Counted from the first letter of the stretch, positions 1 to 64,000 are shown. The stretch is DNA of 64,000 nt from Squalus acanthias (GCA_030390025.1 JASTWF010000033.1:6264001-6328000), one strand, 5' to 3'. Translations and numbers: made by a program. Notes: generated from the letters alone by a model not told the origin.

Positions 1-563
1 GACCCTTGGGGATAGAATGGGAGAACAACTCAATCGGAAGTCCATGGGGAAACCATGTTGTGTTGGCCACGGTGGGGGCGGGAGCCTGAGGGTATATATG
101 GATGTGTAAACCCTCGACCAGGCCTACTGAAGAATTAGGTCAATCTTGGGTCCGAATTCCCGGTTTGCAGCCTTTCTCCTGCGTTTGTGTCCGGTGCAGA
201 AAATGCCCCCCCCCTTATCAATGGATGCTGGGTGAAAAGGAGGGAGGGCTGGGCCATGAAATGTGTGTTACTGATCATGTATCGGAATGTGAAAACCGAA
301 CCATAGATACCAGAGAATTCAAATTGAAAGTCCGTTCTAAATTCCACCCACCCCCCGCAAATAAAACACAATCGCGGGAAGAACAAGAAGAAACCCGGGT
401 TGTCTCCCAAACACACTCCGGGGCAGACAAATGGGTTAGTGGTAGTCCCAACTCGGGTATTATACCATGATGTGCCTCACAAGTTGGTGCCTGTGATATT
501 AAATCTGACCGAGGTGGGAATACCGGACTGGTGCAACCCAGAAACAGCGCGATTATATGGGAG

Positions 564-2179: not shown

Positions 2180-3531
2180 GAGAATGGTGCGGGAATTAAT
2201 AAAAGTATTTTTGGAAAGAGCCAGCACAACTTTGGTGGAATTGGATTTGGAGCCATTATAACGCAAGGGTTCAGCAGATGGTATTGGATTTAACAATAAT
2301 TTGGGGGAAAATACTGAGATGACTGAAGGAAGCAACGTCGGTTACAGTGTTAAAGGGGAACATATCAGAACGCGACCGGGTCAGATAAATGATGCAGCCA
2401 CTGTTTTTAATACCGGAGCCTCCCTTGTTAATAGTATTGATTTGACTGATTTAGATCAATCCGTAAAGGCAGTTAGAAAACGTGTAAAGTAAATTCTGAA
2501 TAAAATGAATGGTCTGGAACAAGAGGAATTGAAGGTGGACCAAATTATGATACATTCATCTGCAGGACGTGGTTAACTATTTAGAATCTCATGCTAAAAA
2601 GATTAACCAAATTTTAAAGGAGAATCTGAATGCCTCTAGTGAGGCCGCGTGGAATGATGTTTGTGTAATGTATGGATCCTGGTTAGTGGAACAAGCCCCT
2701 GATAACCTGCAGAGCATTGCTGAGGGGAGCTCCTCTTGTGGGTGAATCATCGACCCCTGAGGGCAATGTCCACTTATCAATGTACAATGAATATGTGTAA
2801 AGTCAGGGGGTTGGTACAGGTGAACCCGGTGAAACATGAATGCCATTTGCAGGAACAGAACGACATCACCTTATTAGGGATGGTATTGTATTATCCCATC
2901 CTGCACGTAAAGGCGACCCCGAATCCTCTATTCCGTGTGGAGAATATAGCAGTACGCCAGGGAGACCACTTAGTAAGGTATGACGAACCCCGCAGTATGT
3001 GACCCGGGTGGATGGGACCACATGGGTGGCCCCAGATCTTACCGGGTGCGCTCAAGCTCGGGATACATTCTTCTGCCCTTATGACGTTGTAGTACACGCA
3101 GACCCTGTGTGCGAATTCGATTGGGATGGGATAGAATGGAACTTCACCATGAAAGTAGTTGCAGGAAAGCTTTTCCCCGTACAATCTGCGTACCGAGGGA
3201 AAGGTGAGTATTGTGTCACCACCATACACCGGGAATACTAGTATGGTAAAAGTCTGACTTGTCCCATTGCGTTGGGAACGTTTTGCTTTACCCCAGTTCA
3301 ACCTGTAAGACTTGGGGCGCGGGGTTTATTAAGCATTTATGCACATAGGCAAGTAGATATCGCTGTAGAAGGTCAATTAAAAGAGCAATTACACAAGTAC
3401 GTGACTCGATTCGGCTATGACATTCCACCTCCACCAGAACACCTGGTAGAGTTATTGCAACGAGTTAGTCAGTCTCAAAAGTACTTTTATACCCTGGCCC
3501 AGAAAAAACGGAACGTACGCGAATAAATATT

Positions 3532-4042
3532 GGGCCAGAAATTCGGCTCATTTTGGGTGAGTACGCGCTGTGTACTCACCCGTAAGGCCACCTGAAGTGC
3601 CGGTTTCACGCATGCACTGCGCATGCGCTGGAAACCGGAACTTCCGTTCCCCTGAAGGGAGGGGTTCATAAGTCGAATGCGTGCGCGGTAGAGGCATCGT
3701 GCACGCAGCGAACTTCGTTTTTTTTTTCAGGTTTCTCCGGGAGGGTAAGTATGGAAAAGCTGCACTTTTAAAAAGGAGGCGCAAGGACTGTTTTTAACAA
3801 GGTAAGTGGTTAATTAATTACAAAGAAAGGTAAGTTTATTTTTAGCACCGTTAAAAAGCATAATTAATTTTTTCAAAAATTAAAATTTTTGTTTAAAGTT
3901 GTTAATTTATGTAACTTATATTTATTTTAAAAATGTGATTTAAAAAAAAAATTCTTTGAAGTTTAAGTGTAGTTTTGGGGGCAGATCTCTATTCATAGAT
4001 TTGACAGGTCTTCCAGGAAGCTGGAAAGCCGAATTTCCATCC
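3532..4042. mobile_element. Non-autonomous DNA transposon (MITE, Harbinger-like ends) inserted in env 1
   Basis: Imperfect terminal inverted repeats GGGCCAGAAATTCGGCT ... AGCCGAATTTCCATCC; env homology stops and resumes at these ends. Confidence 0.65.
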
Positions 4043-4291
4043 AATTAGATTGGGGATGTTTCGTCCTGGTGGGATATCGGTATTAGTATTGAGGATTATC
4101 CCTGGATAAGAATTATCTCCCACGTTTTGGTCACTGTTCAGTTGATGATTGTGTTATATTTACTAACGATAACTTGTCAAGTCAACAGACGCCGCAAGCA
4201 TTGGTCAAGCTGTTACAGAAGAGCCCGAAGGAAGAATACAGCCCCTACAAGTTGTAAATGCCTGTGACCCTTGACTTGGGTGCACAGCCAC

Positions 4292-26936: not shown

Positions 26937-27970
26937 TGTAAGTGGTTTTTGATCCTAGCCCAATTGCTAGATGGACGGTTCGAATCGCCCCCGCCTTACG
27001 AAAGTTCTACACCCGGGAATTATTATTCAGAGTGTAAATGAAGTAATTCACGGACATGAATGTTTCAGTGAAAAATCAAACTTATATTTATTTGGTCTAA
27101 CATACACTGGCTAAAACATGCACTACTAAACGAAATTACTGATTCTGTGGAGAATAAAATCCAGGTTACAAACAACATACATACAGTACAAAACTGAGGA
27201 CTATGACAAGCAGCAATTCCCTTGTTGCTATGGTGGACTCTCATTCCACCCCTACCAACGAATTACTCAGTCGCATAAGGCCCTTTCGCCTGGCTGAAAC
27301 AAAGTAAGCTCTGACCCTCACAATAGCCCAAAAGCCTCACTTTTGAGAAAAACTCTGAGCCCTCTGGTTACCGGCTTGGGACACTCGAGATCATGTTTAC
27401 CCCCACACACATTCCGTCTCGATTGCTCCGCTTAGCTGCTTCTTCCTCTGGTACTTCTTGTTAGGTCGATCTTGTTGGGGCGAGAGAGAGAGAGAGAGAG
27501 ATAAGGTGGGAAAGGATCTATCTTTATAGGAGTCTTGCTACCCATATCTTTCCCGCCAATCTTTAAAATCCTTTTGTTTCTAAGCACTCCAGTGCTTAAT
27601 CAGTGATGGAGTCATCCTCAGACCCATGTGTACTCCGTGTTTGTACTAATGGCCCTAAGTCTGGGACAGAATTCGGTCTTTGTGTTGGGAAAAATTGGCT
27701 CCTCTCCAGCTGGCAAGTCCAGTGGGTTCATTGTTCTGCTTCTCTTCTGAGATGGAGGTGAGTAGTGCTTTTGCATAATCTGGATGCCTGACAGTTCTTC
27801 CGTCACAGCCAACTGCCATGCGTTCTCTGGAGTTTTAACAAACCACTTTTTCACATATCTGCCCAGGGTGAGCCCATCACAGGGAACATATCCTCAGAAA
27901 AATCCCATAATATAAACAAAATATTCTCGACTGAGTCCATTCTTCAAACAGAGACTTTGCGATCTCTGCA
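26937..27970 (-). repeat. 3' LTR of ERV 2
   Basis: Minus strand TGCAGAG...ACTTACA; direct repeat of 38399-39424; TATAAA at 27523-27528 and AATAAA at 27087-27092; preceded by the purine tract AAACGGGGGAC. Confidence 0.93.
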
Positions 27971-28243
27971 GTCCCCCGTTTAAAGCTTGTCTTTCCACAA
28001 AGCATCACTCGGTGAGACAGCAAAGGCCAAAGTCTCCCACAAGTGAAGCTGTTTCCCTCATTTTACATTTTAACCCCAGAGCTGTAACCCTTACTGCGTG
28101 TCATAGTTCCCTTCTCCCGAGTCAAATCATCAGCGAAACGGCTTCTGAACACATTCAAATGGCTGGGTTGCAATTCCCATTGACAAACTTCAAGTCAAAA
28201 TACAGAACATTAATAAGATCCACAGAAGGTTACCAAAAAGTCA

Positions 28244-28600
28244 CCGCGCACATCACACAGTACAGCATTGACAGGTGGTAACACATTACAATAACTCAAC
28301 AGCGCACATCACACAGTACAGCATTGACAGGTGGTAACACATTACAAAAATACAACAGCGCATATCACACAGTACAGCATTGACAGGTGGTAACACATTA
28401 CAATAACACAACAGCGCACATCACACAGTACAGCATTGACAGGTGGTAAGACATTACAATAATACAACAGCGCACATCACACAGTACAGCATTTACAGGT
28501 GGTAACACATTACAAAAATACAGCAGCGCACATCACACAGTACAGCATTGACAGGTGGTAACACATTACAAAAATACAACAGCACACATCACATAGTACA
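28244..28600. repeat. 56-bp tandem repeat (~6.5 copies) between env and the 3' LTR
   Basis: Unit CGCACATCACACAGTACAGCATTGACAGGTGGTAACACATTACAATAATACAACAG. Confidence 0.95.
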
Positions 28601-28757
28601 GATTGTAAAGCTATAACCAGAATACTATACACTCGCTTACACAACCTTGGTACATTACAAGTTTTTGCAGGGAGAAACCATCATCAACATAAATCAATTA
28701 CACCTTACCGGATCAATCTAACACCCTTTGCTACCGCGCTCGGAGCATCTGGCTCCA

Positions 28758-30006
28758 TCACTTGCAGCTGGTGTAGAACAAGTAGCTTACAAGCAACAAT
28801 TGTATGATAACTAATGCATGGGAACAGATGCGGATCCAGGGAGGAATCTCTATACTCAGACCGATGTCCCACCATGGTGGCGAGACAATCCCCTTCATCT
28901 CCTCCCCCACTTCTACTGTCTTTTGCTCCCTCCAAAGTGTAAAAATGTTTCTGGGAGAGTTCAACGGTCTTTATTAACTCAGTGAGATGTTCCGGCAGAA
29001 AAGGAATCATCCAGGTCCCTCTTCTCTGCCTCCCGGACCCCACACTATCCCCAACATTCAGATTATAAAGCTTTTCTTTCTCTACATTTCCATAGTCCAG
29101 TTCATAAAATTCCTGAAACGTCGCTTTTAACAGAGCTTCATAAAGCTTCTCCGTCTTCCTTGGACACCACACAGGCAGATGGACTTCAGTCAGGTTCAGG
29201 GTCACGGATGCCACGGCGTAGAGCACGTTCTGAAACAACACTTTGTCAGTCGGGATTAACACCAACCCATTCCCTGGACCCCTGGTGGTGGTGGGACACC
29301 CATCTACAGTCATCTGTACTGTCGGGGCTCTGGACGCGGGCTTCCTGGTGTATGAGATGAGCTCTGTGGCGTTGATGGTATTCGGGGGTTTTAGGATCAC
29401 ACAGGAGTCCACACTCCGATCCCAACCGATCCCACCCCTGGCGTCCTGCCATCGCCTGCTAAACGCGATCAACACACCTGCTGGGCAGATCTTTTCCGAG
29501 CCCCACATACACACATAAATCCCTTTCTCGGATTCCCACCACTTATCCCAACACACATTCACTCCTCCCTGAGAACCCGTGATCGTCCGGTACGTGTCAT
29601 GACTTAGTCTTTCCCAGTCAGCTGTCTGGTCCCCTGTATCCGCGCTCAGTTTCCTGAGCCACCACCACCTTCCCAGTGGAATATGTCCCCTGCAGCTAAG
29701 GCACACCCGTTTACCCTCTGTTACCCTAACCCGGGAGGTGATAACCCCTATTCTCGGGCATGGGATGGATGCTTCACCATAGGTGAACTTGTCATGACTG
29801 GAATAGCGGGTGGAATTCGACCCCAGCCATCCAGGCCAGCTTCCCTCGTGGAGATAGACGCTCGCCCCATCCTTCGAGCCACCTCCAGTGGTCATGGTCG
29901 GTCCGTCTCCGCCGGTGCAGCCGAAGATAACCGATTCCTCGGTGTCGCCCCTGTGACTCTCGCTGGCTTCAATCATGACGCTCAGGACTACCATGGCTGA
30001 CTTCAT
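28758..30006 (-). pseudogene. env: env of ERV 2: signal peptide, Ig-like domain, F2-like segment, furin site, internally deleted F1, TM anchor
   Basis: ATG at 30006 follows a pyrimidine-tract/CAG acceptor (30025-30026). Motifs: MKSAMVVLSVMI, RQRR at 29020-29031, a frameshift near 28930, then WWDIGLSIEIPPWIRICSHALVIIQLLLVSYLF. Confidence 0.87.
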
Positions 30007-30206
30007 CTTGTTCTTAGGCGTTCCCTGAAAAGACACAGAATGCAACGTTGTCCTTGGGTGATGCCTCACCTTTCCAGACGCAGCTACACACGATTACATT
30101 TGGTATCCACAGCATACATGTCAATCCAAACTATACAGACAAGCTAAGGCAACAGACAGGAGAGAAATAAGTTATGTACAGCGTCACCCGTCTCCGGGTG
30201 GCCACA

Positions 30207-31534
30207 CTAGGTCTCCTCGACCCTGGGCCTCTTACGACTCCGGCTTCCTTCGTTCAACGGTGTGTAAGGAGGCGTCCACGGCACCCTCGGCTGTGGGATC
30301 CTGACACTCCTTCTCACTCCTGCCCCTACAGGCGGAACGACTGGTCCCTCTGTGGGCTCCTCACTGTCCCAGATTATGGGCTGGAGACCCACAACTGTAG
30401 CGCAGCTCACCACTCCCTGCTGTTTCCTCCTCTTATCAGCTCTTTCCCCAGGGTTGAAAAGCTTCACTGATTGATATGGAACCACTTAGTGCGTCGAGGC
30501 ATTTTGACCACATATACCATTGGACTAGCCCTATCCACGATACTGTACGGTCCCATGTATAGCGGTTGAAAAGTCCCTACCCTGGCGAAGTTTCTAACCA
30601 TTACTTGCTCTCCGACCTTTCACTCGTGTTGCCTCTGAGGCTCAAGCAATAAACGATTTCTACGATGTTGCTTCCCCATGTTACTGGCAGCCTGCCAATG
30701 GGTCTGTCTGAGATGCTCAAACAAATTCTTAACAATCCTGTCCCGGTTCACCTCTCTCAACTGACCTTCTGTGAGAACCGGGGCCAGTACATGGCTGGGC
30801 GTTCTCATGACCCTGCCAGTCACGAGCTCATGTGGGGAATACCCTGTGCTTCTAGACGGGCTGGCTCGGACCCCCATCAGAACTAACGGCAAGACCTCCG
30901 CCCATTTTCTAGGCGAGTCTCCCGTCTCCTTCCGTAACCTTTCCTTGATGGTCCTATTCATCCGCTCCACGATCCCCGATGACTGCGTGTTGTGTGCGAC
31001 ATGCCATTTACCCTCTACACCTAGCATCTTCAGAGTCGCCTGCATGACTGCCGCTGTGAAGTGACTCCCCTGATCGGACTCCACATACCGTGGTAGCCGA
31101 GAGAACACTTCTCTCACTAGAATCCTTGCAGTCCACAAAGCTGTGGCTGTTCGGCATGGGAAGGCTTCTACCCATTTAGAGAACACATCCACCAGGACCA
31201 GGCAGTATGTGTAACCCACCTGCGCGGTGGGCAGCGGTCCGATATAATCGACCTGTATGGACTGCCATGGACCCTCCACTCTCCCAGTGTGTCCCATGGA
31301 AACGTTCCTTTTTGGAGGGTCAAGGTTGTTTGCACCACACACCAAGCAATAGCGCAGAAGTTGCGGAAGTCCTCCCTCAGTTGCGGCCAACACCCTGCCT
31401 GTTCCACCCGTTGCCAATGGTCTCCGGCCCGGGCTGCCCCGCTCCTGGACCCTCGTGGGACAACTGAAGGAATTATCTCCGGTGCTGCTGCAGAACTACC
31501 CACTGTTTCCCTCTAAAAACCATCTCTTCCTTTA
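30207..31534 (-). pseudogene. pol: Integrase region of ERV 2 pol
   Basis: CLVC, PWQSIQVDYIGPLP, VDVFSKWVEAFP, SDQGSHF, SSGIVERMNRTIK and a C-terminal YMGPY motif. Confidence 0.93.
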
Positions 31535-32958
31535 GAGTCATAGAGTCATAGAGTTATACAGCACAGAAAGAGGCCCTTCGGCCCCTCGTGTCCGCGCCGG
31601 CATTCAAGCCCTGTCTATTCTAATCCCATGTTCCAGCACTTGGTCCGTAGCCTTGTGTGCTATGGCGTGTCAAGTGCTCATCTAAATGATTCTTGAATAT
31701 TGTGAGGGTTCCTGCCTCTACCATCCTTTCAGGCAGTGATTTCCAGATTCCAACCACACTCTGGGTGAAAAAGTTTTTCCTCCAATCCCCTCTAAACCTC
31801 CTGCCCCTTCCCTTGAAACTATGCCCCCTGGTTATTGACCCCTCTACTAAGGGAAAACGTTCCTTTCTATCTACCCTATCTATGCCACTCATAATTGTGT
31901 ACACCTCAATCAGGTCCCCGCTCAGCCTTCTCTGCTCTAAGGAAAACAAGCCCAGCCTGTCCAGTCTCTCTTCATAGCTGAAGCGCTCCAGCCCAGGTAA
32001 CATCCTGGTGAATCTCCTCTGCACCCTCTCCAATGAACTCACATCCTTCCTATAGTGTGGCGACCAGAACTGCACACAGTATTCCAGCTGTGGCCGAACT
32101 ACCGTTTTGTACAGCTCCATCATAACCTCCCTGCTCTTATATTCTATGCCTCGGCTAATGAAGGCATGTTTCCCATATGCCTTTTTAACCACCTTATCAA
32201 CCTGTCCTGCTGCCTTCCGGGATCTATGTGCATGCTCACCAAGGTCCCTCTGATCCTCTGTCCTTCTTCGGGTCCTACCATTCATTGTGTATTCCGTTGT
32301 CTTGTTAGTCCTCCCAAAATGATTCACCTCACACTTTTCAGGGTTAAATTCCATTTGCCACTGTTCTGCCCATCTAACCAACCCGTCTATATAGTCCTGA
32401 AGCCGGAGGCTTCCCTCCTCACTATTTACCACGCCACCAATTTTCGTGTCATTTGCGAACTTACTGATCATACCTCCTACAGTCATATCTAAATCATTAA
32501 TGTACACTACAAACAGCAAAGGACCCAGCATTGGACACAGGCTTCCAGTCACAAAAACAACCTTCGACCATCACACTCTGCCTCCTGCCACTAAGCCAAT
32601 TTTGGATCAAAAGTGCCAAGTTGCACTGGATCCCATGGGCTTTTACCTTCTTGACCAGTCTCCCATGCGGGACTTTGTCAAAAGACTTACCGAAGTCCAT
32701 GTAGACTACATCAACTGCACTACCCTCATCCATACACCTAGTCACCCCCTCTAAAAATTCAATCAAATTGGTCAGACATGATCTCCCCCTGACAAAGTCA
32801 TGATGATTATCCTTGATTAATCCTTGCCTCTCCAAGTGGAGACTATTTCTGTCCCTCAGAATTTTTTCCAATAATTTCCCTACCACTGATGTTAGGCTCA
32901 CTGGCCTGTAATTCCCTGGTTTATCCCTACTACCCTTCTTGAATAATGGTACTACGTA
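31535..32958 (-). mobile_element. CR1 LINE inserted in pol (same subfamily as 564-2179)
   Basis: RT motifs and the same (CTCTATGA)n tail; TTTA duplication; pol reads ISV|KEEMVFRGKQWVV across the insertion. Confidence 0.92.
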
Positions 32959-35900
32959 TTTACCGAGATACCTGCCATTCCGTATGGACGCTCTACCTTA
33001 TCTCCCTTAGCCAGCGTCTCCAGAACAGTCTTTAGGACGGGATCCCGTGCCTGGACAATCTTTAGGTCCGGGGCCAATGTTTCCCCTGCACTCCCTTGGG
33101 CCCCAGCTTTGTCTCTGATCGCTGCTACCTGACTCGACCCATATGGATCCCAAAACGTGCCAGTTCGAGCACCCTCTTCGGTCATCACGTTGGCCTGCTG
33201 ATTGCCCTCCGCACGGGGTTCCCCCTTTGAATGGGCCTTAACTTTGTGGATATAGAAATCCCCCAGGGTTCCTATCCTTGTTATGATCTGTTGCAACAAT
33301 GGCTTTGTTGCTAGGGGTTTGCCGTCTGCAGATGTGAACCCGCGACGAGACCAAATGGCTAAATATTCTGTACACGAATTGCAAGTGAACATGCTGTCCC
33401 AGAAAATAGTGTAGGGCGTAGGGTATTATAGGGGAGGAGCTAAATACGATTAAAATCACTAAGGAATTGGTACTCAGTAAAATAATGGGACTCAAGGCGG
33501 ATAAATCCCCTGGACCTGATGGCTTTCATCCTAGGGTCTTGAGGGAAGTGGCAGTAGGGATTGTGGATGCTTTGGTAATAATTTTCCAAAATTCCCTGTA
33601 CTCAGCAAAGGTCCCGGCAGATTGGAAAACTGCTAATGTAACACCCTTATTTAAAAAGGTTATAGGCAGAAGGCTGGAAATTATAGACCAGTTAGCCTAA
33701 CATCTGTGGTGGGTAAAATTTTGGAGTCTATTATTAAGGAGACAGTAACGGAACATTTAGATAAACATAATTTAATAGGACAAAGTCAGCATGGCTTTAT
33801 GAAGGGGAAGTCATGTCTGACAAATTTGCTTGAGTTCTTTGAGGACATAACGTACAGGGTGGATAAAGGGGAACCAGTGGACGTAGTGTATTTAGACTTC
33901 TAGAAGGCATTCGACAAGGTGCCACATGAAAGATTAATGCTCAAGATAAAAAATCACTGGATTGGGGGTAATATTCTGGCATGGGTGGAGGATTGGTTAT
34001 CTAACAGGAAGCAGAGAGTTGGGATAAATGGTTCATTCTCGGACTGGCAACCAGTAGCCAGTGGTGTTCCGCAGGGGTCGTGCTGGGTCCCCAACTCTAT
34101 ATAATCTATATTAACGATTTGGAGGAGGGGACCGAGTGTAACATATCAAAGTTTGCAGATGATACAAGGATGGGAGGGAAAGTAGAAAGTGAGGAGGACA
34201 TTAAAAACGTACAAGGGGATATAGACAGGCTGGGTGAGTGGGCGGAGATTTGGCAGATGCAATACAATATTGGAAAATGTGAGGTTATGCACTTTGGCAG
34301 GAAAAATCAGAGAGCAAGTTATTATCTTAATGGCGAGAAACTGGAAAGTACTGCAGTACAAAGGGATCGGGGGGTCCAAGTGCAAGAAAATCAAAAAGTT
34401 ACTATGCAGGTGCAGCAGGTGATCAAGAAGGCCAACGGAATGTTGGCTTTTATTGCTAGGGGGATAGATTATAAAAACAGGGAGGTATTGCTGCAGTTAT
34501 ATAAGGTATTGGTAAGACCGCACCTGGAATATTGCGTACAGTTTTGGTGTCCATACTAAAGAAAAGACATACTTGCTCTCGAGGCAGTACAAAGAAGGTT
34601 CACTCGGTTAATTCCGGGGATGAGGGGGTGGACATATAAGGAGAGGTTGAGTAGATTGGGACTCTACTCATTGGAGTTCAGAAGAATGAGAGACGATCTT
34701 ATTGAAACATATAAGATTGTGAAGGGGCTTGATCGGGTGGATGCGGTAAGGATGTTCCCAAGGATGGTTGAAACTAGAACTAGGGGGCATAAACTTAGAA
34801 TAGGGGGCTGCTCTTTCAAAACCGAGATGAGGAGAAACTTCTTCACTCAGAGGGTAGTAGGTCTGTGGAATTTGCTGCCCCAGGAAGCTGTGGAAGCTAC
34901 ATCATTAAATAAATTTAAAACAGAAATAGATAGTTCCCTAGAAGTAAAGGGAATTACGGGTTACGGTGAGCGGGCAGGAAATTGGACATGAGGCTGAGTT
35001 CGGATCGGTCAGGGCCCTGTGGGTGGCAGAGCGGGCCCAGGGGCTGAGTGGCCGGGTCCTGCTCCTACTTCTTGTGTTCTTTAGATTTGAGGTTAGGATC
35101 AGATCAGCCATGATCTTATTGAATGGCGGAGCAGGCTCGCGGGGACGATTGGCCTACTCCTGCTACTATTTCTTATGTTCTTATGTTCTTATGGTACACT
35201 TAGGGGTGAGTAACCACATACACCACCGCCGACAGTTCAGCGTGCTGGGCGCTCATGCTGCTCGGGAGTTTAATGGCCTTGGCAATGCCTGCCTTTGGGT
35301 CAAAATTCCCGCATCCAGTGTGTTGCTCCCCTGCCACCACTGTACTGGGCCCGTCTACATGGATCCCAGCCCGAAACCCTATGTCTACGTCCCATACCCC
35401 TTCAACAGAACATTTGTGGGCCACCCCTGGGTAGATCAAATTTGCGGCGAGCTTGGGCTCACAGAGGCCTTTCACACTCAAATTTGTCTGAGAGAGCAAT
35501 AAAGTCCAGCGAGCAATGCGTGCACTGCTCACCGTGCCGTCCTTTATCCTCCCATCCAGAAGCATCTGAGTGGGCTAATGATGGGTTAAGAGAGTTAACG
35601 GGGATGCCCCCGTGAAGATTTGTGATCTCCTCACGGCCCAATGTGTGGCAAGCAGGTGCCTCTCACAATTGGAGTACCCCCTCTCTACATCTGTGAGGAT
35701 TCTTGATGAGTATACCACAGGCCTCAGCTTGCCATGCCGCTCCTGGAGCAGCACTGCGCTCAAACTCTCCCCTGTGGCAGCTACCTCCAAAAATAACTCC
35801 TTTCCCCCATCAACGCTCCTAAAGCAGGTGCGGTCTGCAGATCACTCTTCAGATGACTAAAAGCTGCCATGCAATCCTCATCCCACTCCCAGACCACTCC

Positions 35901-37287
35901 CTTTTGAAGCAGCCGGAGTAGACTAGCTGCCGTAGCGGCATAGTCCTCTATGAAATCCCTGCAATACCCTGTGAGACCCAGGAAGGATCTTACCCCCGTT
36001 ATCGTGGTCGGGGCAGGTAGCTCCTGTACCGCCTTCCTTTTCACCTTATCGATCGCCCTCTCGCCAGCACGTATGGTCAGCCTGAGGAATTTTACGTCCT
36101 GCTGGCCGATCTGTGCTTTCTTGGGATTAACCTTGAACCCAGCTTCCTTTTACAGACTCAGCAGCTCAGCCAGCAGGGGGCCATGCTCCTACCCCTCGTT
36201 GGAGAACAAAAGCAGATCGTCCACGTACTGTACAAGCCGCTGCGGTCTGCTGAACCCTTTTAAACAGTTGGCCATGTATTGGTGGAAAATAGAAGGGCTG
36301 TTATGAAACCCTTGGGGAAGGCAGGTCCATGTGTACTGCTGACCCTTGAAAGTGAACGTGAATTTAGAGGGATTTTGATAGGGATAGACCAGAATCTGTT
36401 TGAAATGTCCAGCACCGTGAATGTTTTCGCGGATGCCGGGATACTCCCGATCAGGTCAGCTACGGCTGCGACGGTAGGGGCACAGGCTGGGATGTTCTTG
36501 TTAAGAACTCGATAGTCCACAGTGGCTCTCCACAAATTGCCCGGTTTCCTAACCTGCCAAATCCGAGAGTTCACATGGGTCACTATGGGTCTCAACACAC
36601 CCTGCTCAACCAATGATCCCAATGCCGCCTCTAAATCCGCCTCTGCCTCTCTAGGGAAGTTGTACTGTTTCTGTGGTCGAGACATGGGGTCTCCTTCTAT
36701 TCTGACCTCCACCCCTATTACCCTCCCACAGTCGTGCTTGTGTGTAGCGAATGCCGCGAGGTTGGCTCGCACATCCGCTATGTACTCCGCCGGGGTAGAA
36801 GTGACCAAACGTTCAAGGTCATAACTATCCTTGGGCTTCATCGTACACACGGTTCCCTTGCCTTGCTTCCCTGGTATAACTACCACCTCCTTCTCCTTTC
36901 CCGTGCATACTGCCCCCGAAAGACAGTGATTCCGGAAATCCACCAATATCTTGTGGGCCAGTATGAAGACTGCCCCCAAAATGCCTATTCCTCCCGCTCC
37001 CACCGCATCAGGACACAATTCCACTCCGTATGGAGTGTACCCAGATCGATGGCTAGCGGGATGGAGAAAGACCCAGCCTGTCCGTTCCCGGTGGACCCTA
37101 CTAAGTTATATGGGACCCCGCTCGATAGAGATGATGTGGTCCGGTTATCCGCATAGACAATGATGCATGAAGCTCCAGTGTCCAGCAGATCGGTCCCTTG
37201 CACCTTCTCCACCACCATCTTCACGCACGGTCTCTTCCAAGCATCATATCTTAGTGGGCACAGGTAAACGGGCTGAGAAGCCCCTAG
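32959..37287 (-). pseudogene. pol: Protease-RT-tether-RNase H region of ERV 2 pol (interrupted by a CR1)
   Basis: Protease LLDTGAS; RT WRATVDYRVLN, VLDISNRFWSI, QYTWTCLPQGFHNSP and QYVDDLLL (YVDD 36216-36227); tether RPVVYSSRIL..CERHLLA; RNase H VDG..SAQHAEL|DS..WSRRGFTSADGKP..KVKAH..GNQQA. Confidence 0.92.
33426..35192 (+). mobile_element. CR1 LINE inserted in the RNase H of pol
   Basis: RT motifs, a (CTTATGTT)n tail and a GGTA duplication at the junctions. Confidence 0.92.
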
Positions 37288-38348
37288 TCATGGGTCGGGA
37301 TTGTTTGGGGCGGATGGGAGTACGCTGCCCGCTGCTGCATCCACCCTACCCTGCCCTGCCGTAAAGACTGCGCGGAGAGCAGCCACTAATACCGCGAACG
37401 GATCAGTGCTGCTTCCTGCCAAAGCTGCGGCTTTCTGCACTGGCGCTGGAGGATCCCCTTTCCCGCTCCTTTTGTCAGAGACTGGGCAGTCTTTCCTCCA
37501 GTGCCCTTTACTCCCACACCCATAACAACCCTGCTTCTTCTCTGAGATACCCCCTTCCTGGCGCCACTCTCTTCAAACGTTGCCTCCACTAGGCTTTAAC
37601 TCGTGTACTCTGCCCTTTGGTTTGTCATCCTCACCCCTACCATTCTTAAAAGAGCGAGTTAACTGCCGGATCACACTCTATTCTGTGGTCTGGGGATCCC
37701 TGGAATCGAACCACCCCTCTGCTTTGGCCTTGATCCTGGCAGGCTGTTCGCCACCAGGGTCCTCAGCCAATGAGCTCTAGGCTCCCCCTGCAGCTGCGCC
37801 CGGTCAGGCACCCCCGCACAGGCACTCCGGTAGACGGGCCAAAGCCTGGCGCCTATGTATGCCACCTGAATATCCTTCAACTGCTCTCCCAGCACCTTTA
37901 CCTCACTCGACAAGCGAGCGTTCTCCTCCCTAACCATCCTCTCGTTCCCCTTTGCCTCAGTTACCTGGCATTCCAGGAACTCCTTATGGTTACGGAAGGT
38001 TCCCTCCTGGCTTATTTTTCCCTGCTTCTCATTCTTTACCTCCGTGCATAACCTGCTCCCTACTACAGCCCTTGCATCTGACTGTGCCTCGGACTCCCTG
38101 ATCTCTGCCTCTAACTTAGCAACCTGCTTATCTAGCAGTTGGACGTGTCTTCGTAGACAGATGAGCCATATCGCCTTTTCAATGCTGCTCCTATGGTCCT
38201 TGCCCTCCGTCCATTCTGCCGCTGCGTCCACCGGACGCTCAGACCGCAACAAGCCTAGCACCCACTTCTTAGTGACGTTAACCTTCTTAAACTCATATGA
38301 AGAAATCATTTCCTCCATTTGGGATCTTTCACCAGAAGCCCTGTCCAT
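37288..38348 (-). pseudogene. gag: gag of ERV 2 (coiled-coil N-terminus, partial capsid, one CCHC knuckle)
   Basis: ATG lies 50 nt from the 5' LTR; heptad-rich N-terminus; CYGCGSKGHWRKDC at about 37486-37527; ends in TGA at 37288-37290; frameshifted and short. Confidence 0.85.
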
Positions 38349-38374
38349 GACTGATTTACACTCCTGTAACTCAG

Positions 38375-38393
38375 GTCCTGCCCGCAGTCGCCA
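38375..38393 (-). promoter_or_regulatory. Primer binding site (tRNA-Ser-like)
   Basis: TGGCGACTGCGGGCAGGA begins 5 nt after the LTR end and resembles the complement of tRNA-Ser 3' ends (TGGCG...GCAGGA); the match is imperfect. Confidence 0.6.
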
Positions 38394-38398
38394 AGAGA

Positions 38399-39424
38399 TG
38401 TAAGTGTTTTTTTGATCCTAGCTCAATTGCTAGACGGACGGTTCAAATCGCCCCCGCCTTACGAAAATTGTACACCCGGGAATTATTATTCAGAGTGTAA
38501 ATGAAATAAGTCGCGGACAGGAATGCTTCGGTGAGAAATCAATCTTATATTTATTTGGTCTAACATACACTGGCTAAAACATTCACTACTAAACTAAATC
38601 ACTGTCTCTGTGGAGAATAAAATCCAGGTTACAAATAACATACATACAGTACAAAACTTAGGACTATGAATAAGGTAATTCCCTTGTTGCTATGGTGGAC
38701 TCTAATTCCACCCCTACCAACGAATTACCCAGTCGCATAAGCCGTTTCGCCTGGCTGAAACAAACAAAGCTCCCACCCCGGAATAGCCCAAAAACTTCAC
38801 TTCTGAGAAAAACTCTGAGCCCTCTGGTTACCGGCTTGGGACATTCGAGATCATGCTTAACCCCACACACAGTCCGTCTCGATCGCTCCACTTAGCTGCT
38901 TCTTCCTCTGGTACATCTTGTTAGGTCGAGCTTGTTGGGGCGAGAGAGAGACAGAGATAGAGAGAAAGGTGGGAAAGGGTTTATCTTTTTGGAGTCTCGC
39001 TACCCCTATGTATCCCGCCAATTTTTAAAATCATTTTATTTCTAAGCACTACGGTGCTTAATCAGTGATGGGGTCATCCATGAGTATTCCATGATTGGAC
39101 TAATGGCCCTAAGTCTGGGATATATTTCGGTCTTTGTGTTGGGCAAAACTGGCTCCTCTCCAGCTGGCTAGGCCACTGGGTTCATTGTTCTGCTTCTCTT
39201 CTCAGATGGAGGTGAGAAGAGCTTTTCCATATTCTGGATGACTGACAGTTGTTTTTTCACAGCCAACTGTCATGCGTTTTCTGGAGTTTTAACAAACCAG
39301 TTATTCACATATTTACACAGGGTGATCCCATCACAGGGAAAATAACCTCAGAAAATTTCCATAAAGTCCACAAAATATTCTCGACTGAGTCCATTCTTCA
39401 AACAGAGACTTTGCGATCTCTTCA
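38399..39424 (-). repeat. 5' LTR of ERV 2
   Basis: Direct repeat of 26937-27970; its TATA position is mutated (CAAAAA on the minus strand). Confidence 0.93.
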
Positions 39425-42400
39425 GATATTAGGTGGATTTGGGAGCAGCTGCCGATATTAGATGTGGTTATGAAGAGCTGCGGATATTAGGTGGTGTGGG
39501 GAGGCCCTGAGGATATTAGGTGGGATGGTGAGGAGCTCAGGATATTAGGTGGGGTGGGGAGGAGCTGAGGATATCAGGTGGGGTGGGGAGGAGCTGAGGA
39601 TATTAGATGGGGTGGGGAGGAGCTCAGGATATTAGGTGGGGTGGGGAGGAGCTGAGGATATTAGGTGGGGTGGGGAGGAGCTGAGGACAAAAGGTGGGGT
39701 GGGGAGGAGCTGAGGATATTAGGTGGGGCGGGGAGGAGCTGAGGATATTAGGTGGGGTGGGGGGAGCTGAGGATATTAGGTGGGGTGGGGAGGAGCTGAG
39801 GATATTAGGTGGGGTGGGGAGGAGCTGAGGATATTAGGTGGGGTGGGGAGGAGCTGAGGATATTAGGTGGGGTGGGGAGGAGCTGAGGATATTAGGTGGG
39901 CTGGGGAGGAGCTGAGGAAATTAGGTGTGGTGGGGAGGAGCTGAGGATATTAGGTGGGATGGGGAGAAGCTGAGGATATTAGGTGGGGTGGGGAGGTGCT
40001 AAGGATATTCGTTGGGGTGGGGAGGAGCTGAGGATATTAGGTGGGGTGGGGAGGAGCTGAGGATATTAGATGGTGTGGGGAGGAGCTGAAGATATTAGGT
40101 GGGGTGGGGAGGAGCTGAGGATATTAGTTGGGTTCAGGATGAGCTGTGGATATTAGGTGGGGTCGGGAGGAGCTGAGGATATTAGGTGGGGTGGAGAGAA
40201 GCTGAGGATATTAGGTGGGGAGGAGCTGAGGATATTAGGTGGGGTGGGGAGGAGCTGAGGATATTAGGTGGGGTGGGGAGGAGCTGAGGATATTAGGTGG
40301 GGTGGGTAGGAGCTGAAGATATTAGTTGGGGTGGGGAGGAGCCGAGGATATTAGGTGGGGTGGGGTGGAGCTGACGATATTAGGTGGGGTGGGGGGGAGC
40401 TGAGGATATTAGGTGAATTGGGGAGGAGATGAGGATATTAGGTGGGCTGGGGAGGTGCTGATGATATTAGGTGTGTTCACGAGGAGCGGAGGATATTATG
40501 TTGGGTGAGGAGGAGCTGAGGATATTATCTGGGGTGGGGGGAGCTGAGGATATTAGGTGGAGTAGGGAGGTGCTGAGGATATTAGGTGGGGTGTGGAAGA
40601 GCTGAGGATATTAGGTGGGTTCAGGAGGAGCTGAGGATATTAGGTGGGGTGGGGAGGAGCTGAGGATATTAGAGGGTTGGGATGAGCTGAGGATATTAAG
40701 TGGGCTGGGGAGGAGCTGCGGATATCAGATGGGGTAGGGAGGAGCTGAGGATATTAGGTGGGGTGGCGAGGAGCTGCGGATATCAGATGGGGAAGGGAGG
40801 AGCTGAGGATATTAGGTGGGGTGGGGAGGAGCTGAGGATATTAGGTGGGGTGGGGAGGAGCTGAGGAAATTAGTTGGGGTTTGGGAGGAACTGAGGATAT
40901 TAGTTGGGTTCAGGATGAGCTGTGGATATTAGGTAGGGTGGGGAGGAGCTGAGGATATTAGGTGGGGTGGAGAGAAGCTGAGGATATTAGGTGGGGAGGA
41001 GCTGATGATATTAGGTGGGGTGGGGTTGAGCTGAGGATATTAGGTGGGGTGGGTAGGAGCTGAAGATATTAGGTGGGGTGGAGAGGAGCTGAGGATATTA
41101 GTTGGGGTGTGGAGGAGCTGAGGATATTAGGTGAGGTGGGGAGGAGCTGAGGATATTAGGTGGGGTGGGGAGGTGCTGAGGATATTAGGTGGGTTCACGA
41201 GGAGCGGAGGATATTAGGTGGGGTGAGGAGGAGCTGAGGACATTATCTGGGGTGGGAGGAGCTGAGGATATTAGGTGGGGTGGGGAGGTGCTGAGGATAT
41301 TAAGTGGGGTGGGAAGGAGCTGAGTATATCAGATGGGGTGGGGAGGAGCTGAGGATATTACTTGGGGTCGGAGGAGCTGAGGATATTAGTTGGGGTGGGG
41401 AGTTGCTGAGGATATTCGTTGGGGTGGGGAGGAGCTGAGGATATTAGTTTGGGTGGGGAGGTGCTGAGGATATTAAGTGGGGTGGGGAGGAGCTGAGGAT
41501 ATTAGATGGGGTGGGAGGTGCTGAGGATATTAGGTGGGGTGTGGAGGAGCTGAAGATATTAGGTGGGTTCAGGAGAAGCTGAGGATATTAGGTGGGTTCA
41601 GGAGGAGCTGAGGATATTAGGTGGGGTGGGGAGGAGCTGAGGATATTAGAGGGTTGGGATGAGCTGAGGATATTAGGTGGGGTGGGTAGGAGCTGAGTAT
41701 ATCAGATGGGGTGGGGAGGAGCTGAGGATATTAGATGGGTTGGGGAGGAGCTGAGGATATTACTTGCGGTCGGAGGAGCTGAGGATATTAGTTGGGGTGG
41801 GGAGTTGCTGAGGATATTCGTTGGGGTGGCGAGGAGCTGAGGATATTAGTTTGGGTGGGGAGGTGCTGAGGATATTAAGTGGGGTGAGGAGGAGCTGAGG
41901 ATATTAGATGGTGTGGGAGGTGCTGAGGTTATTAGGTGGGGTGAGGAGGAGCTGAGGATATTAGATGAGGTGGGAGGTGCTGAAGATATTAGGTGGGTTC
42001 AGGAGAAGCTGAGGATATTAGGTGTGGTGGGGAGTAGCTGAGGTTATTAGGTGGGGTGGGGAGGAGCTGAGGATATTAGGTGGGGTTTGGGAGGAACTGA
42101 GGATATTAGTTGTGGTGGGGAGGAGCTGAGGATATTAGTTGGGGTGGGGAGGTGCTGAGGATATTAGGTGGGTTCACAAGGAGCGGAGGATATTAGGTGG
42201 GGTGCGGAGGAGCTGAGGATATTATCTGGGGTGGGGGGAGCTGAGGATATTAGGTGGAGTAGGGAGGTGCTGAGGATATTAGGTGGGGTGTGGAAGAGCT
42301 GAGGATATTAGGTGGGTTCAGGAGGAGCTGAGGATATTAGGTGGGGTGGGGAGGAGCTGAGGATATTAGAGGGTTGGGATGAGCTGAGGATATTAAGTGG

Positions 42401-45112
42401 GCTGGGGAGGAGCTGCGGATATCAGATGGGGTAGGGAGGAGCTGAGGATATTAGGTGGGGTGGGGAGGAGCTGCGGATATCAGATGGGGAAGGGAGGAGC
42501 TGAGGATATTAGGTGGGGTGGGGAGGAGCTGAGGATATTAGGTGGGGTGGAGAGAAGCTGAGGATATTAGGTGGGGAGGAGCTGATGATATTAGGTGGGG
42601 TGGGGAGGAGCTGAGGATATTAGGTGGGGTGGGGAGGAGCTGAGGATATTAGGTGGGGTGGGTAGGAGCTGAAGATATTAGGTGGGGTGGAGAGGAGCTG
42701 AGGATATTAGTTGGGGTGTGGAGGAGCTGAGGATATTAGGTGAGGTGGGGAGGAGCTGAGGATATTAGTTAGGGTGGGGAGGTGCTGAGGATATTAGGTG
42801 GGTTCACGAGGAGCGGAGGATATTAGGTGGGGTGAGGAGGAGCTGAGGATATTATCTGGGGTGGGAGGAGCTGAGGATATTAGGTGGGGTGGGGAGGTGC
42901 TGAGGATATTAAGTGGGGTGGGAAGGAGCTGAGTATATCAGATGGGGTGGGGAGGAGCTGAGGATATTTCTTGGGGTCGGAGGAGCTGAGGATATTAGTT
43001 GGGGTGGGGAGTTGCTGAGGATATTCGTTGGGGTGGGGAGGAGCTGAGGATATTAGTTTGGGTGGGGAGGTGCTGAGGATATTAAGTGGGGTGGGGAGGA
43101 GCTGAGGATATTAGATGGGGTGGGAGGTGCTGAGGATATTAGGTGGGGTGTGGAGGAGCTGAAGATATTAGGTGGGTTCAGGAGAAGCTGAGGATATTAG
43201 GTGGGTTCAGGAGGAGCTGAGGATATTAGGTGGGGTGGGGAGGAGCTGAGGATATTAGAGGGTTGGGATGAGCTGTGGATATTAGGTGGGGTGGGTAGGA
43301 GCTGAGTATATCAGATGGGGTGGGGAGGAGTTGAGGATATTAGATGGGTTGGGGAGGAGCTGAGGATATTACTTGCGGTCGGAGGAGCTGAGGATATTAG
43401 TTGGGGTGGGGAGTTGCTGAGGATATTCGTTGGGGTGGCGAGGAGCTGAGGATATTAGTTTGGGTGGGGAGGTGCTGAGGATATTAAGTGGGGTGAGGAG
43501 GAGCTGAGGATATTAGATGGGGTGGGAGGTGCTGAGGATATTAGGTGGGGTGAGGAGGAGCTGAGGATATTAGATGAGGTGGGAGGTGCTGAAGATATTA
43601 GGTGGGTTCAGGAGAAGCTGAGGATATTAGGTGGGTTCAGGAGGAGCTGAGTATATTAGGTGTGGTGGGGAGTAGCTGAGGTTATTAGGTGGGGTGGGGA
43701 GGAGCTGAGGATATTAGGTGGGGTTTGGGAGGAACTGAGGATATTAGTTGTGGTGGGGAGGAGCTGAGGATATTAGTTGGGGTGGGGAGGTGCTGAGGAT
43801 ATTAGGTGGGTTCACAAGGAGCGGAGGATATTAGGTGGGGTGAGGAGGAGCTGAGGATATTATCTGGGGTGGGAGGAGCTGAGGATATTAGGTGGGGTGG
43901 GGAGGTGCTGAGGATATTAGGTGGGGTGTGGAGGAGCTGAGGATATTAGGTGGGTCCAGGAGGAGCTGAGGATATTAGGTGGGGTGGGGAGGAGCTGAGG
44001 ATATTAGTTGGGTTCAGGATGAGCTGTGGATATTAGGTGGGGTGGGGAGGAGCTGAGGATATTAGGTGGGGTGGAGAGAAGCTGAGGATATTAGGTGGGG
44101 AGGAGCTGATGATATTAGGTGGGCTGGGGAGGAGCTGAGGATATTAGGTGGGGTGGGGAGGAGCTGAGGATATTAGGTGGGGTGGGTAGGAGCTTAAGAT
44201 ATTAGGTGGGGTGGAGAGGAGCTGAGGATATTAGTTGGGGTGTGGAGGAGCTGAGGATATTAGGTGAGGTGGGGAGGAGCTGAGGATATTAGGTGGGGTG
44301 GGGAGGTGCTGAGGATATTAGGTGGGTTCACGAGGAGCGGAGGATATTAGGTGGGGCGAGGAGGAGCTGAGGATATTATCTGGGGTGGGAGGAGCTGAGG
44401 ATATTAGGTGGGGTGGGGAGGTGCTGAGGATATTAGGTGGGGTGTGGAGGAGCTGAGGATATTAGGTGGGTTCAGGAGGAGCTGAGGATATTAGGTGGGG
44501 TGGGGAGGAGCTGAGGATATTAGCTGGGGTGGGATGAGCTGAGGATATTAAGTGGGGTGGGAAGGAGCTGAGTATATCAAATGGGGTGGGGAGGAGCTGA
44601 GGATATTAGATGGGGTGGGGAGGAGCTGAGGATATTACTTGGGGTCGGAGGAGCTGAGGATATTAGTTGGGGTGGGGAGTTGCTGAGGATATTCGTTGGG
44701 GTGGGGAGGAGCTGAGGATATTAGTTTGGGTGGGGAGGTGCTGAGGATATTAAGTGGGGTGGGGAGGAGCTGAGGATATTAGATGGGGTGGGAGGTGCTG
44801 AGGATATTAGGTGGGGTGTGGAGGAGCTGAAGATATTAGGTGGGTTCAGGAGAAGCTGAGGATATTAGGTGGGTTCATGAGGAGCTGAGGATATTAGGTG
44901 GGGTGGGGAGGAGCTGAGGATATTAGGTGGGTTCAGGATGAGCTGTGGATATTAGGTGGGGTGGGGAGGAGCTGAGGATATTAGGTGGGGTGGAGAGAAG
45001 CTGAGGATATTAGTTGGGGAGGAGCTGAGGATATTAGGTGGGGTGGGGAGGAGCTGAGGATATTAGGTGGGGTGGAGAGGAGCTGAGGATATTAGATGGG
45101 ATGGGGAGGAGT
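39425..45112. repeat. 29-bp G-rich minisatellite (~5.7 kb)
   Basis: Unit GAGCTGAGGATATTAGGTGGGGTGGGGAG with higher-order duplication. Confidence 0.98.
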
Positions 45113-54015: not shown

Positions 54016-54056
54016 CTGTGTCCGGATCGGACATCTCCAAGACTGGGTATTGGACA

Positions 54057-64000
<9,944 letters not shown>

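Follow-up and report, generated by a model that had tools for sequence, protein, structure and literature searches.

Endogenous retroviruses (ERVs) clustering with snakehead retrovirus (SnRV) were described from the elephant shark in 2015 as CmiERV lineage I (Han 2015, PMC4422223), and PMC6001957 reports an SnRV-related clade in every major vertebrate lineage. PMC4977317 places the clade in coelacanth and amphibians; other names for it are 'Huo' (Xu et al. 2018) and SnRV-like clade (Hayward et al. 2015, cited in PMC4977317).

Lokiretroviruses lie outside Retroviridae in the published trees, and their Env is reported to match the Pfam family Fusion_gly with an E-value of 2.2e-7 (Wang & Han 2020, PMC7947760). 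In the relevant parts of the supplement to that paper the loki consensus Pols read PFGY-x-NSPAEF, and LPQG first appears in the reference alignment. Foamy Env (gp130; PDB 8ozh, 8rm0/8rm1) is presented as a retroviral Env with F-like structure and fusion machinery in the sections of Fernandez et al. (2024, PMC11468914) that concern it.

Here we present the features of a provirus in a 64,000-nt stretch of the Squalus acanthias genome (the window), together with those of its family in the same genome. We put the chances at roughly three in four that the family belongs to or beside the SnRV-like lineage of Retroviridae and not to the lokiretroviruses, and that the locus is a long-dead, segmentally copied one. 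A new host range, as considered in the sequence-only reading of the window, is countered by the elephant shark lineage of 2015 and by the clade known from all major vertebrate lineages; the occurrence of SnRV-like ERVs in cartilaginous fishes is already known, and the shark family would be another member.

Proviral anatomy and damage

The provirus occupies positions 26937-39424 on the minus strand of the window and is real, every named part having been located there (Table 1). Motifs, Pfam matches and the LTR repeat confirmed the order LTR-PBS-gag-pro-RT-tether-second RNase H-IN-env-PPT-LTR that had been read from the sequence alone. Features of Retroviridae at the locus are the paired LTRs, the PBS-like site, the gag-pro-pol-env order and the PPT-like tract; a target-site duplication was looked for around the provirus and none was found.

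Table 1. Features located in the window
Feature	Position	Strand	Remarks
Satellite array of 29-nt units next to the 5' LTR	39425..45111	.	co-amplified with the provirus
5' LTR, TG...CA	38399..39424	-	direct repeat with 26937-27970
PBS-like 18-mer, starts TGG, 5 nt past the 5' LTR	38376..38393	-	read directly
gag remnant	37288..38348	-	ATG at 38348; N-terminal part coiled-coil
Protease	36985..37287	-	DTGAS 37168-37182; same frame as gag, after the gag stop codon
Reverse transcriptase, frameshifted	36189..37105	-	Pfam RVT_1; LPQGFHNSP 36294-36320, YVDD 36216-36227
Connection and tether (degenerate first RNase H)	35575..36149	-	Pfam RT_RNaseH_2, E 5e-14
Second RNase H, N-terminal part, truncated by CR1 insertion 1	35200..35574	-	
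CR1-type LINE insertion 1, within the RNase H domain	33422..35195	+	missing from three uninterrupted family copies
Second RNase H, C-terminal part	32952..33425	-	Pfam RNase_H, E 1.1e-7
CR1-type LINE insertion 2	31543..32958	-	12 bp of proviral sequence duplicated on either side
Integrase, frameshifted close to its end	30210..31541	-	Pfam rve core; GPY 30545-30553
env remnant	28705..30093	-	signal peptide, ~300-aa head, F2-like strands and helix, RQRR furin site 29020-29031
56-nt tandem repeats, env to 3' LTR	28174..28677	-	~47-nt period in other copies
PPT-like purine-rich tract adjoining the 3' LTR	27971..27981	-	read directly
3' LTR, TG...CA	26937..27970	-	direct repeat with the 5' LTR
'env 1'	43..4180	+	env of this family, diverged; pieces with 38-60% aa identity; retains parts of the fusion subunit

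The gag remnant holds a CCHC knuckle at 37486-37527 (Pfam zf-CCHC) and terminates at a TGA in frame with pol. The tether region is also matched by Pfam RT_RNaseH, and in open Pol frames of the family, as in the window, Pfam finds a tether and then a second RNase H, both lying between RT and IN. Motifs of the env remnant are NGLVLIP at 29251-29271 and CPRKTEKLYEALLKATF at 29116-29166.

The provirus is dead, as judged from the divergence of its LTRs (K2P 0.107 over 1024 aligned sites; 88.8% identity over 1041 columns by BLAST), the internal loss of 588 nt from gag near 37847, two CR1 elements in pol and the loss of 1009 nt from env. Comparison with uninterrupted copies bore out the CR1 insertions suspected in pol: insertion 1 resembles other CR1 copies within the window, and insertion 2 is 91% identical to the CR1 at 561-2004, which interrupts 'env 1'. 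The provirus of 'env 1' extends beyond the window. The deletion of the fusion subunit noted earlier for the provirus's own env ('env 2') was likewise found, at 29010/29008; it has taken away the fusion peptide, the first heptad repeat and the globular core, and is followed downstream by a heptad-repeat-B stub, a frameshift and the membrane anchor out of frame.

Reverse transcriptase placement and affinity to SnRV

The RT tree (55 rows, 433 columns, maximum likelihood with careful search), compiled without lokiretrovirus, Odin, ERV-L, alpha-, beta- and deltaretrovirus sequences, sets a 41-row clade of Retroviridae, including the shark lineage, apart from Gypsy at 100/97. The shark RT falls among the retroviruses and is separated from both Ty3/Gypsy and Caulimoviridae. 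A Ty3/Gypsy (Metaviridae) element of errantivirus kind with a baculovirus-F-type env is contradicted by this separation from all 11 Gypsy rows, by a second RNase H of retroviral kind and by LPQG in place of PFG, and the portion of the F-type errantivirus survey cited here reports no vertebrate elements homologous to invertebrate ones (10.1101/2023.10.26.564294). We regard such an element as extremely improbable, although the nearest ESM-Atlas clusters hold Gypsy and Baculo_F families (a lead only), one shark homologue matches Baculo_F weakly (E 0.0011) and Ty3 is the top PDB score for Pol, where, over the whole Pol, the RTs of Ty3, MLV and foamy virus score alike (222, 220 and 215 bits).

A clade of shark, frog and coelacanth sequences (99/97) is nested in a larger group (96/80) to which SnRV and the foamy and gamma/epsilon viruses also belong. 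BIV falls outside this group, in a tree that has no loki or Odin rows. Since both SnRV (branch length 1.39) and BIV (3.85) stand on long branches, BIV may owe its basal position to an artefact. In the best tree SnRV is the sister of the shark/frog/coelacanth clade, weakly at 62/76; at the 80% level SnRV, the foamy viruses, the gamma/epsilon viruses and the shark clade form a polytomy.

SnRV, a virus with an extra 3' ORF, was represented by a sequence that agrees letter for letter, over its RT stretch, with the SnRV row in the alignment of Wang & Han; it gave the best RT score of any virus compared (257.8 bits by phmmer, against at most 198.5 for gammaretroviruses and at most 187 for foamy viruses). 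The RT motifs LPQGFHNSP and QYVDDLLL match those of SnRV and of canonical retroviruses. In both viruses gag and pol share one frame with a single stop between them, TGA in the window and in an uninterrupted copy and TAG in SnRV, and both Gag proteins carry a CCHC knuckle. Intact members encode such a Gag, and Pol (PR-RT-tether-RNase H-IN) would be read through the one in-frame stop, to judge from the frame arrangement. The Env profile also matches SnRV Env: hhalign gives a probability of 94.9% and an E-value of 4.6e-8 over 361 columns, which run from the F2-like CP..GP..G segment, span the furin site and reach into the core. Like the SnRV-like clade, the family has relatives in coelacanth, frogs and cartilaginous fish.

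The shark family differs from SnRV in a Pol that is only about 33% identical, in a very high copy number and in a tandem-repeat array between env and the 3' LTR. In the integrase core SnRV is no closer (39% identity) than the gammaretroviruses (43-47%).

A lokiretrovirus, or a sister lineage carrying that group into cartilaginous fishes, would account for the LTR-gag-pol-env layout, the tether with a second RNase H, the furin-cleaved F-like Env and the aquatic and amphibian hosts, all of which lokiretroviruses share (PMC7947760). The closest relatives of its Pol are found in frogs and coelacanth, which belong to host groups of lokiretroviruses as well, and an initial quick tree that included no class II virus put the lineage below foamy, gamma and epsilon viruses in a loki-like position. 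Once BIV was added, however, the lineage nested inside Retroviridae (96/80, no loki rows), unlike lokiretroviruses in the published trees. The window RT reads LPQGFHNSP and QYVDDLLL, whereas the consensus Pol passages of lokiretroviruses read [CT]PFGY[AS]NSPAEF and IYVDD[IV]L; the loki RT motif occurs at 0 sites in the 3.7-Gb genome, against 2,903 exact sites of the SnRV-type motif (control 0). The supplement with the loki consensus proteins contains none of six short Env motifs drawn from the homologues in shark and Xenopus, and no smc gene was seen in the shark element. In a set of 6 chondrichthyan genomes that included Chiloscyllium punctatum, Wang & Han detected 0 lokiretroviruses; C. punctatum does bear an env homologue of the shark family. 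With the RT motifs, the RT tree, the SnRV Env match and the lack of a Fusion_gly match (below) all against it, the label 'lokiretrovirus-like' is not supported, and a loki origin is quite unlikely.

Predicted fold of the envelope protein

Other copies in the same genome retain a complete env in open frames. Since all that remains of the window env is the stretch preceding the furin site and a short tail out of frame, the fold was predicted on such intact copies, by an AlphaFold2 model of one natural 581-aa open env frame (pLDDT 70.5). Foldseek against the PDB returned 233 matches at E<=0.001, the best 40 of the 233 all being paramyxo- or pneumovirus F proteins (best E 2.4e-10). VIA-align gave Z>=8 for 225 of 988 chains, again with F proteins of these two families as the top 50 entries; the best match is hPIV3 F (Z 13.1, rmsd 5.0, 318 residues). 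In the structural alignment the segment ahead of the furin site, which the sequence-only reading had compared with measles F2, aligns from model residue 41 onward with the F2 start of solved F proteins. One predicted fold unites the F2 strand and helix, a fusion peptide immediately preceded by the furin site, HRA, domains I-III, HRB and the anchor.

In its predicted fold the shark Env family belongs to the F-type class I fusogens, and the paramyxovirus-F-like env of the sequence-only reading stands at this level, on intact family copies, since the model of a natural open frame matches paramyxo-/pneumovirus F. Likeness to hPIV3 F (1ztm) and RSV F (3rki) extends over model residues 39-448 and includes the F2 strands and helix, the furin site before the fusion peptide, HRA, the beta-rich domains, HRB and the anchor; the shark Env differs in a sequence identity of only 8-16%, in an extra N-terminal head of ~300 aa and in being borne by a retrovirus. 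Pfam Fusion_gly (PF00523) gave no hmmscan match at E<=1, E<=0.1 or E<=0.01 in three env ORFs of one family copy, two further env regions and 20 homologues, so that the modelled likeness is one of fold and not detectable in sequence by this family; among the two groups it is the loki Env alone that Fusion_gly detects. A scan of the genome, run with a strict filter under which the controls too stayed silent, gave no Fusion_gly match. Fold by itself does not discriminate between loki and SnRV-like viruses, as lokiretroviruses are also reported with an F-like fold. The absence of a gamma-type CX6CC, noted earlier, agrees with one full-length family env frame, in which there is no CC pair and hence no CX6CC.

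Intact members encode an Env of ~800 aa with a signal peptide, the ~300-aa head, an F2-like strand-helix segment and the furin site RQRR, followed by fusion peptide, heptad repeat A, cysteine-rich beta core, heptad repeat B and membrane anchor. The head is probably the receptor-binding part, a role that we infer, as the model of this domain failed (pLDDT 29.8). Fusion would be of class I, with priming by furin, insertion of the fusion peptide and collapse of both heptad repeats into a six-helix bundle. The window copy, having lost part of gag, the continuity of pol and the entire env fusion core, is capable of none of these functions.

A foamy-like endogenous virus (Spumaretrovirinae-related, class III), its env a diverged foamy Env of the known F-like kind, was also weighed. 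Foamy Env is the best PDB sequence match of the env profile (8ozh, E 1.3e-3, a weak similarity in the cysteine-rich core), PFV integrase is the sole integrase among the 60 best PDB sequence matches for Pol, and foamy-like ERVs have been published from cartilaginous fish, as cited in PMC11468914. The leader-peptide/SU/TM organisation is, however, not recognisable by Pfam in the shark Env, and hhalign gave only 32% probability over 96 columns against SFV Env, compared with 94.9% for SnRV. Pol and Gag are without spumavirus hallmarks: Spuma_A9PTase and SH3_11, both found in the foamy references, are absent from the family Pol (one uninterrupted copy), and the CCHC-bearing Gag has pol in frame behind its stop. 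Foamy Gag is not known to carry a Cys-His knuckle, nor foamy Pol to be fused to Gag. In the RT tree nine foamy viruses form their own clade (100/100) without the shark lineage, fish and amphibian foamy-like ERVs not being among the rows. A foamy-like origin is unlikely, and we retain the placement in or beside the SnRV-like lineage.

BFVD matches to the env model include mononegavirus F-like glycoproteins, baculovirus F and paramyxovirus F0, as well as walleye retrovirus Env and feline foamy Env. The fold-level matches to walleye retrovirus Env suggest that F-type Env may extend to epsilonretroviruses. It is conceivable, at somewhat below even odds, that the entire SnRV-like lineage has the F-type fusogen as its envelope, which would then not be peculiar to lokiretroviruses and foamy viruses. 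If so, an F-like Env would be the ancestral or an early-acquired vertebrate retrovirus envelope and gamma-type Env a later replacement, and no natural archive of the F-type envelope would be richer than this shark genome, which holds copies by the thousand and numerous open env frames.

Copying of the locus

The family is very abundant in this cartilaginous-fish genome, as the count of SnRV-type RT motifs given above illustrates. The locus itself, including both flanks, is present in at least 40 copies. After the gag loss, the CR1 insertions and the env loss it would have multiplied at least 40-fold together with its flanks, by segmental duplication at the DNA level and not through reinfection or retrotransposition. 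Each of three junctions, that of the CR1 and those of the two flanks, is found end to end in 39-40 scored loci, with identities of 88-100%.

Structure and decay of the provirus

The provirus proposed from the sequence alone is real and its coordinates were accurate; it is oriented on the minus strand, and all the motifs quoted for it are present and could be assigned positions. The two LTRs share 88.8% identity over 1041 columns, with a K2P distance of 0.107 over 1024 aligned sites, corresponding to an age of 24-243 My depending on the substitution rate tried. A PBS-like, TGG-initiated 18-mer lies 5 nt past the 5' LTR, and a purine run directly adjoins the 3' LTR. The internal Pfam domains follow, on the minus strand, the order CCHC knuckle, RVT_1, Gypsy-type RNase H-like tether, second RNase H and integrase core. 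A target-site duplication was sought around the provirus and none was found. A tandem repeat array with a 56-nt unit separates env from the 3' LTR; in other copies this interval holds long arrays whose period is about 47 nt.

The damage to the window copy, included in the table, emerged from separate comparisons with three copies elsewhere in the genome that are less damaged. The env deletion sets in three residues past the furin site RQRR; neither the fusion peptide nor the first heptad repeat nor any of the globular core is left. Further downstream a frameshift moves the membrane anchor into another frame, and frameshifts are present in RT and IN as well. The provirus is inert, passive duplication being its sole later history, and as an individual locus it is an ordinary dead ERV copy.

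Table. Features of the provirus and its surroundings, in window positions.
Feature	Position	Strand	Remarks
3' LTR	26937-27970	-	about 1.03 kb direct repeat, TG...CA
5' LTR	38399-39424	-	about 1.03 kb direct repeat, TG...CA
Tandem repeat array	28174-28677	-	56-nt unit
gag deletion	near 37847	-	588 nt missing
CR1 insertion	33422-35195		within second RNase H
Second CR1 insertion	31543-32958		bordered by 12-bp duplication
env deletion	junction 29010/29008	-	1009 nt missing
Co-copied unit	23084-45111		
Second env	43-4180	+	
CR1 in second env	561-2004		
G+C-rich region	54000-64000		10 kb, 65% G+C

Placement of the lineage by pol

The natural 1,302-aa open Pol of another genome copy, L035, scored about equally against the reverse transcriptases of Ty3 (222 bits), MLV (220 bits) and foamy virus (215 bits) in the PDB; the PFV integrase was the lone integrase among the best 60 PDB matches. 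Its nearest named relatives, 42-46% identical and with the same domain set, are frog and coelacanth proteins annotated as "NYNRIN-like". No lokiretrovirus sequences were returned by the search for Pol relatives, and a search restricted to the region around NSPIWPV yielded two proteins among 76 candidates, both from the shark lineage. Reference viruses were taken from IMG/VR and comprised gammaretroviruses, foamy viruses (Spuma_A9PTase), a lentivirus (BIV_Env), caulimoviruses and the 10,688-nt genome L036, whose RT stretch is identical to the row of snakehead retrovirus (SnRV) in the supplementary alignment of Wang and Han. Among the fetched viruses SnRV gave the best RT score (257.8 bits); gammaretroviruses reached at most 198.5 and foamy viruses at most 187 bits.

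A first quick tree of 88 rows, which contained no class II virus, gave a lokiretrovirus-like basal position that was not retained; nine partial rows (L059, L074, L083, L085, P0087, P0104, P0101, P0112 and P0070) had been removed before it was built. The careful maximum likelihood tree comprised 55 rows and 433 columns, with 52 rows from the quick tree and three new ones; it was built without lokiretrovirus, Odin, ERV-L and alpha-, beta- or deltaretrovirus sequences, and SnRV and BIV form long branches in it. Retroviridae stand apart from Gypsy in this tree (100/97), and the shark, frog and coelacanth sequences form a clade (99/97). This clade falls inside a group (96/80) that also holds SnRV, foamy and gamma/epsilon viruses and excludes BIV. 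In the best tree the sister of the clade is SnRV, a weakly supported pairing (62/76).

The shark lineage carries the RT motifs LPQGFHNSPSIFHQ and QYVDDLLL, matching SnRV. In the passages of the supplement to PMC7947760 that were covered, all lokiretrovirus consensus Pols read [CT]PFGY[AS]NSPAEF and IYVDD[IV]L, and LPQG appears solely in the reference-virus alignment. The lokiretrovirus RT motif pattern had no match in the whole genome. Gag and pol share a frame across a single stop codon, TGA in the provirus and TAG in SnRV, and the spumavirus protease and SH3_11 domains are absent from Pol. The description of the element as lokiretrovirus-like is thus not upheld: its RT motifs are of SnRV type, the lokiretrovirus motif is missing from the genome, and the lineage lies inside Retroviridae in a tree without lokiretrovirus sequences. 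Assigning the shark elements to lokiretroviruses would be a tempting misfiling. The provirus probably belongs to the known SnRV-like lineage or stands next to it, and the modestly new point is its envelope.

The new host range suggested from the sequence alone is likewise not supported: lineage I of the elephant-shark ERVs was shown by Han (2015, PMC4422223) to cluster with SnRV. According to the sections of Naville and Volff (2016, PMC4977317) consulted, SnRV-like ERVs are the major class in coelacanth and occur in amphibians too, and parts of Xu et al. (2018, PMC6001957) describe an SnRV-related clade in all major vertebrate lineages.

Envelope homologues and predicted fold

Copy L014 has a natural open env frame of 581 aa, extending from the F2-like segment through the cytoplasmic tail. 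An exhaustive phmmer search of 1.84 billion representatives delivered 41 env homologues at E<=1e-3, ten of which were looked up (eight named, two unnamed). Five of the eight named ones belong to chondrichthyans, namely the sharks Mustelus, Chiloscyllium punctatum and Heterodontus, the sawshark Pristiophorus and the skate Rhinoraja, and three to frogs (Pelodytes, Mantella and Xenopus tropicalis); no teleost is represented. The closest named matches, at about 70% identity, are from Pristiophorus japonicus. These relatives favour a cartilaginous fish as host. A profile of the env alignment run against a 5.8-billion-protein set added solely shark and ray fragments. Three annotated shark genes, P0005, P0034 and P0006, contain env pieces and are named as a cadherin-related protein, an fbxo15 isoform and a Niban-like protein; these gene models have probably swallowed ERV fragments.

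Pfam searches of the window env, of intact env pieces and of the homologues gave nothing except one weak Baculo_F match, apart from a weak Ig_3 match (E 0.17) in the env head, a domain whose model was of very low confidence (pLDDT 29.8). Scanning the genome with PF00523 gave no match and was uninformative, as the controls were equally silent. At the profile level, env matched SnRV Env with 94.9% probability (E 4.6e-8, 361 columns) and simian foamy Env with 32% probability (96 columns); the best PDB sequence match of the profile was foamy Env (E 1.3e-3).

An AlphaFold2 monomer model from a 32-sequence alignment reached a pLDDT of 70.5, with a beta-rich core above 80. Foldseek found 233 PDB matches at E<=0.001, of which the best 40 are all paramyxo- or pneumovirus F, headed by hPIV3 F (E 2.4e-10). 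With VIA-align, 225 of 988 chains scored Z>=8, and F accounts for each of the best 50 entries; the top alignment (Z 13.1, rmsd 5.0 over 318 residues) covers model residues 39-448. The proposal of an F-like env is accordingly borne out at the level of the predicted monomer fold, and the segment that had been lined up by eye with F2 is the part of the model structurally aligned to the start of F2. Among predicted viral structures, the model best matched F-like glycoproteins from arli-, lispi- and chu-like viruses and baculovirus F, along with Env of walleye retrovirus, paramyxovirus F0 and Env of feline foamy virus. In BFVD the Env polyproteins of walleye epidermal hyperplasia virus 1 and walleye dermal sarcoma virus matched at E 9.8e-10 and E 1.9e-6, respectively, so judged from models epsilonretroviral Env may share the F-like fold.

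Foamy Env is described as structurally F-like in the sections of Fernandez et al. (2024, PMC11468914) consulted. In the literature as covered, supplements aside, SnRV-type Env was not found to be called F-like, and links to F were found solely for foamy viruses (2024) and lokiretroviruses (2020). By profile and by predicted fold, SnRV-type Env takes its place among the F-like fusogens. More retroviral lineages than before thus have an envelope of this kind, a point relevant to the origin of retroviral env genes. Alongside the observed domain order, furin motif and gag/pol frame arrangement and the predicted F fold, intact family members would produce Gag-Pol by stop-codon read-through, and their Env, presumably primed by furin, would bind a receptor through its N-terminal head and drive class I fusion by six-helix-bundle formation.

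Copies of the family and of the locus

The 3.7-Gb assembly (3,882 contigs) was searched for relatives. The env remnant gave 1,419 first-look candidates, of which 40 places were scored; 22 of these, counting the window's own, show the deleted form over its full length, and in 11 the match ends at or close to base 1084, the starting point of the deletion. Searching with the fusion-subunit protein from an intact copy produced 10,918 first-look candidates; each of the 105 that were scored reached E<=2.3e-193, one group with 91-95% identity and others with 71-76%, in open frames of up to 870 aa. RT yielded 8,882 candidates, with open Pol frames reaching 1,420 aa. Many of these open env and pol frames sit in groups 67-78% identical to the window copy, which suggests that its sister groups were active much more recently. 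The exact degenerate pattern for the 11-aa RT motif PQGFHNSPSIF occurs at 2,903 genome sites versus none for the reversed control; the family is thus far commoner here than the 100-700 ERV insertions quoted for elephant shark in the consulted part of PMC4977317.

Three probes of 201-241 nt were designed across the RNase H/CR1 junction, the 3' LTR with its CR1-side flank, and the 5' LTR with its 29-nt-satellite flank. Each is complete in 39-40 scored loci with 88-100% identity, many of them on the window's own contig, and in two other copies the neighbouring sequence is colinear with the window across the 5.7-kb satellite and about 3.8 kb past the 3' LTR. Because junctions and flanks are common to the copies, a single old integration, damaged beforehand, must have been amplified along with its flanks by copying of DNA, and the at least 40 copies of the locus are not separate infections. 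The co-copied unit comprises the dead provirus, the 5.7-kb satellite of 29-nt units and the CR1-rich flank of about 3.8 kb, and is present at no fewer than 40 further loci, on contigs such as C2561, C3212, C29 and C251. It forms a large repeat, segmental or higher-order, whose copies cluster on a few contigs.

The second env of the window, also noticed in the sequence-only reading, belongs, in diverged form, to the F-like family of the provirus env (aa identity of 38-60% in pieces). Parts of the fusion subunit are retained in it, and its provirus extends past the window edge. This env is interrupted by a CR1 element 91% identical to the CR1 in the provirus pol. The G+C-rich region at the other end of the window is strongly AT-skewed, has long open frames whichever of the six frames is read, and is probably a low-complexity or satellite region.
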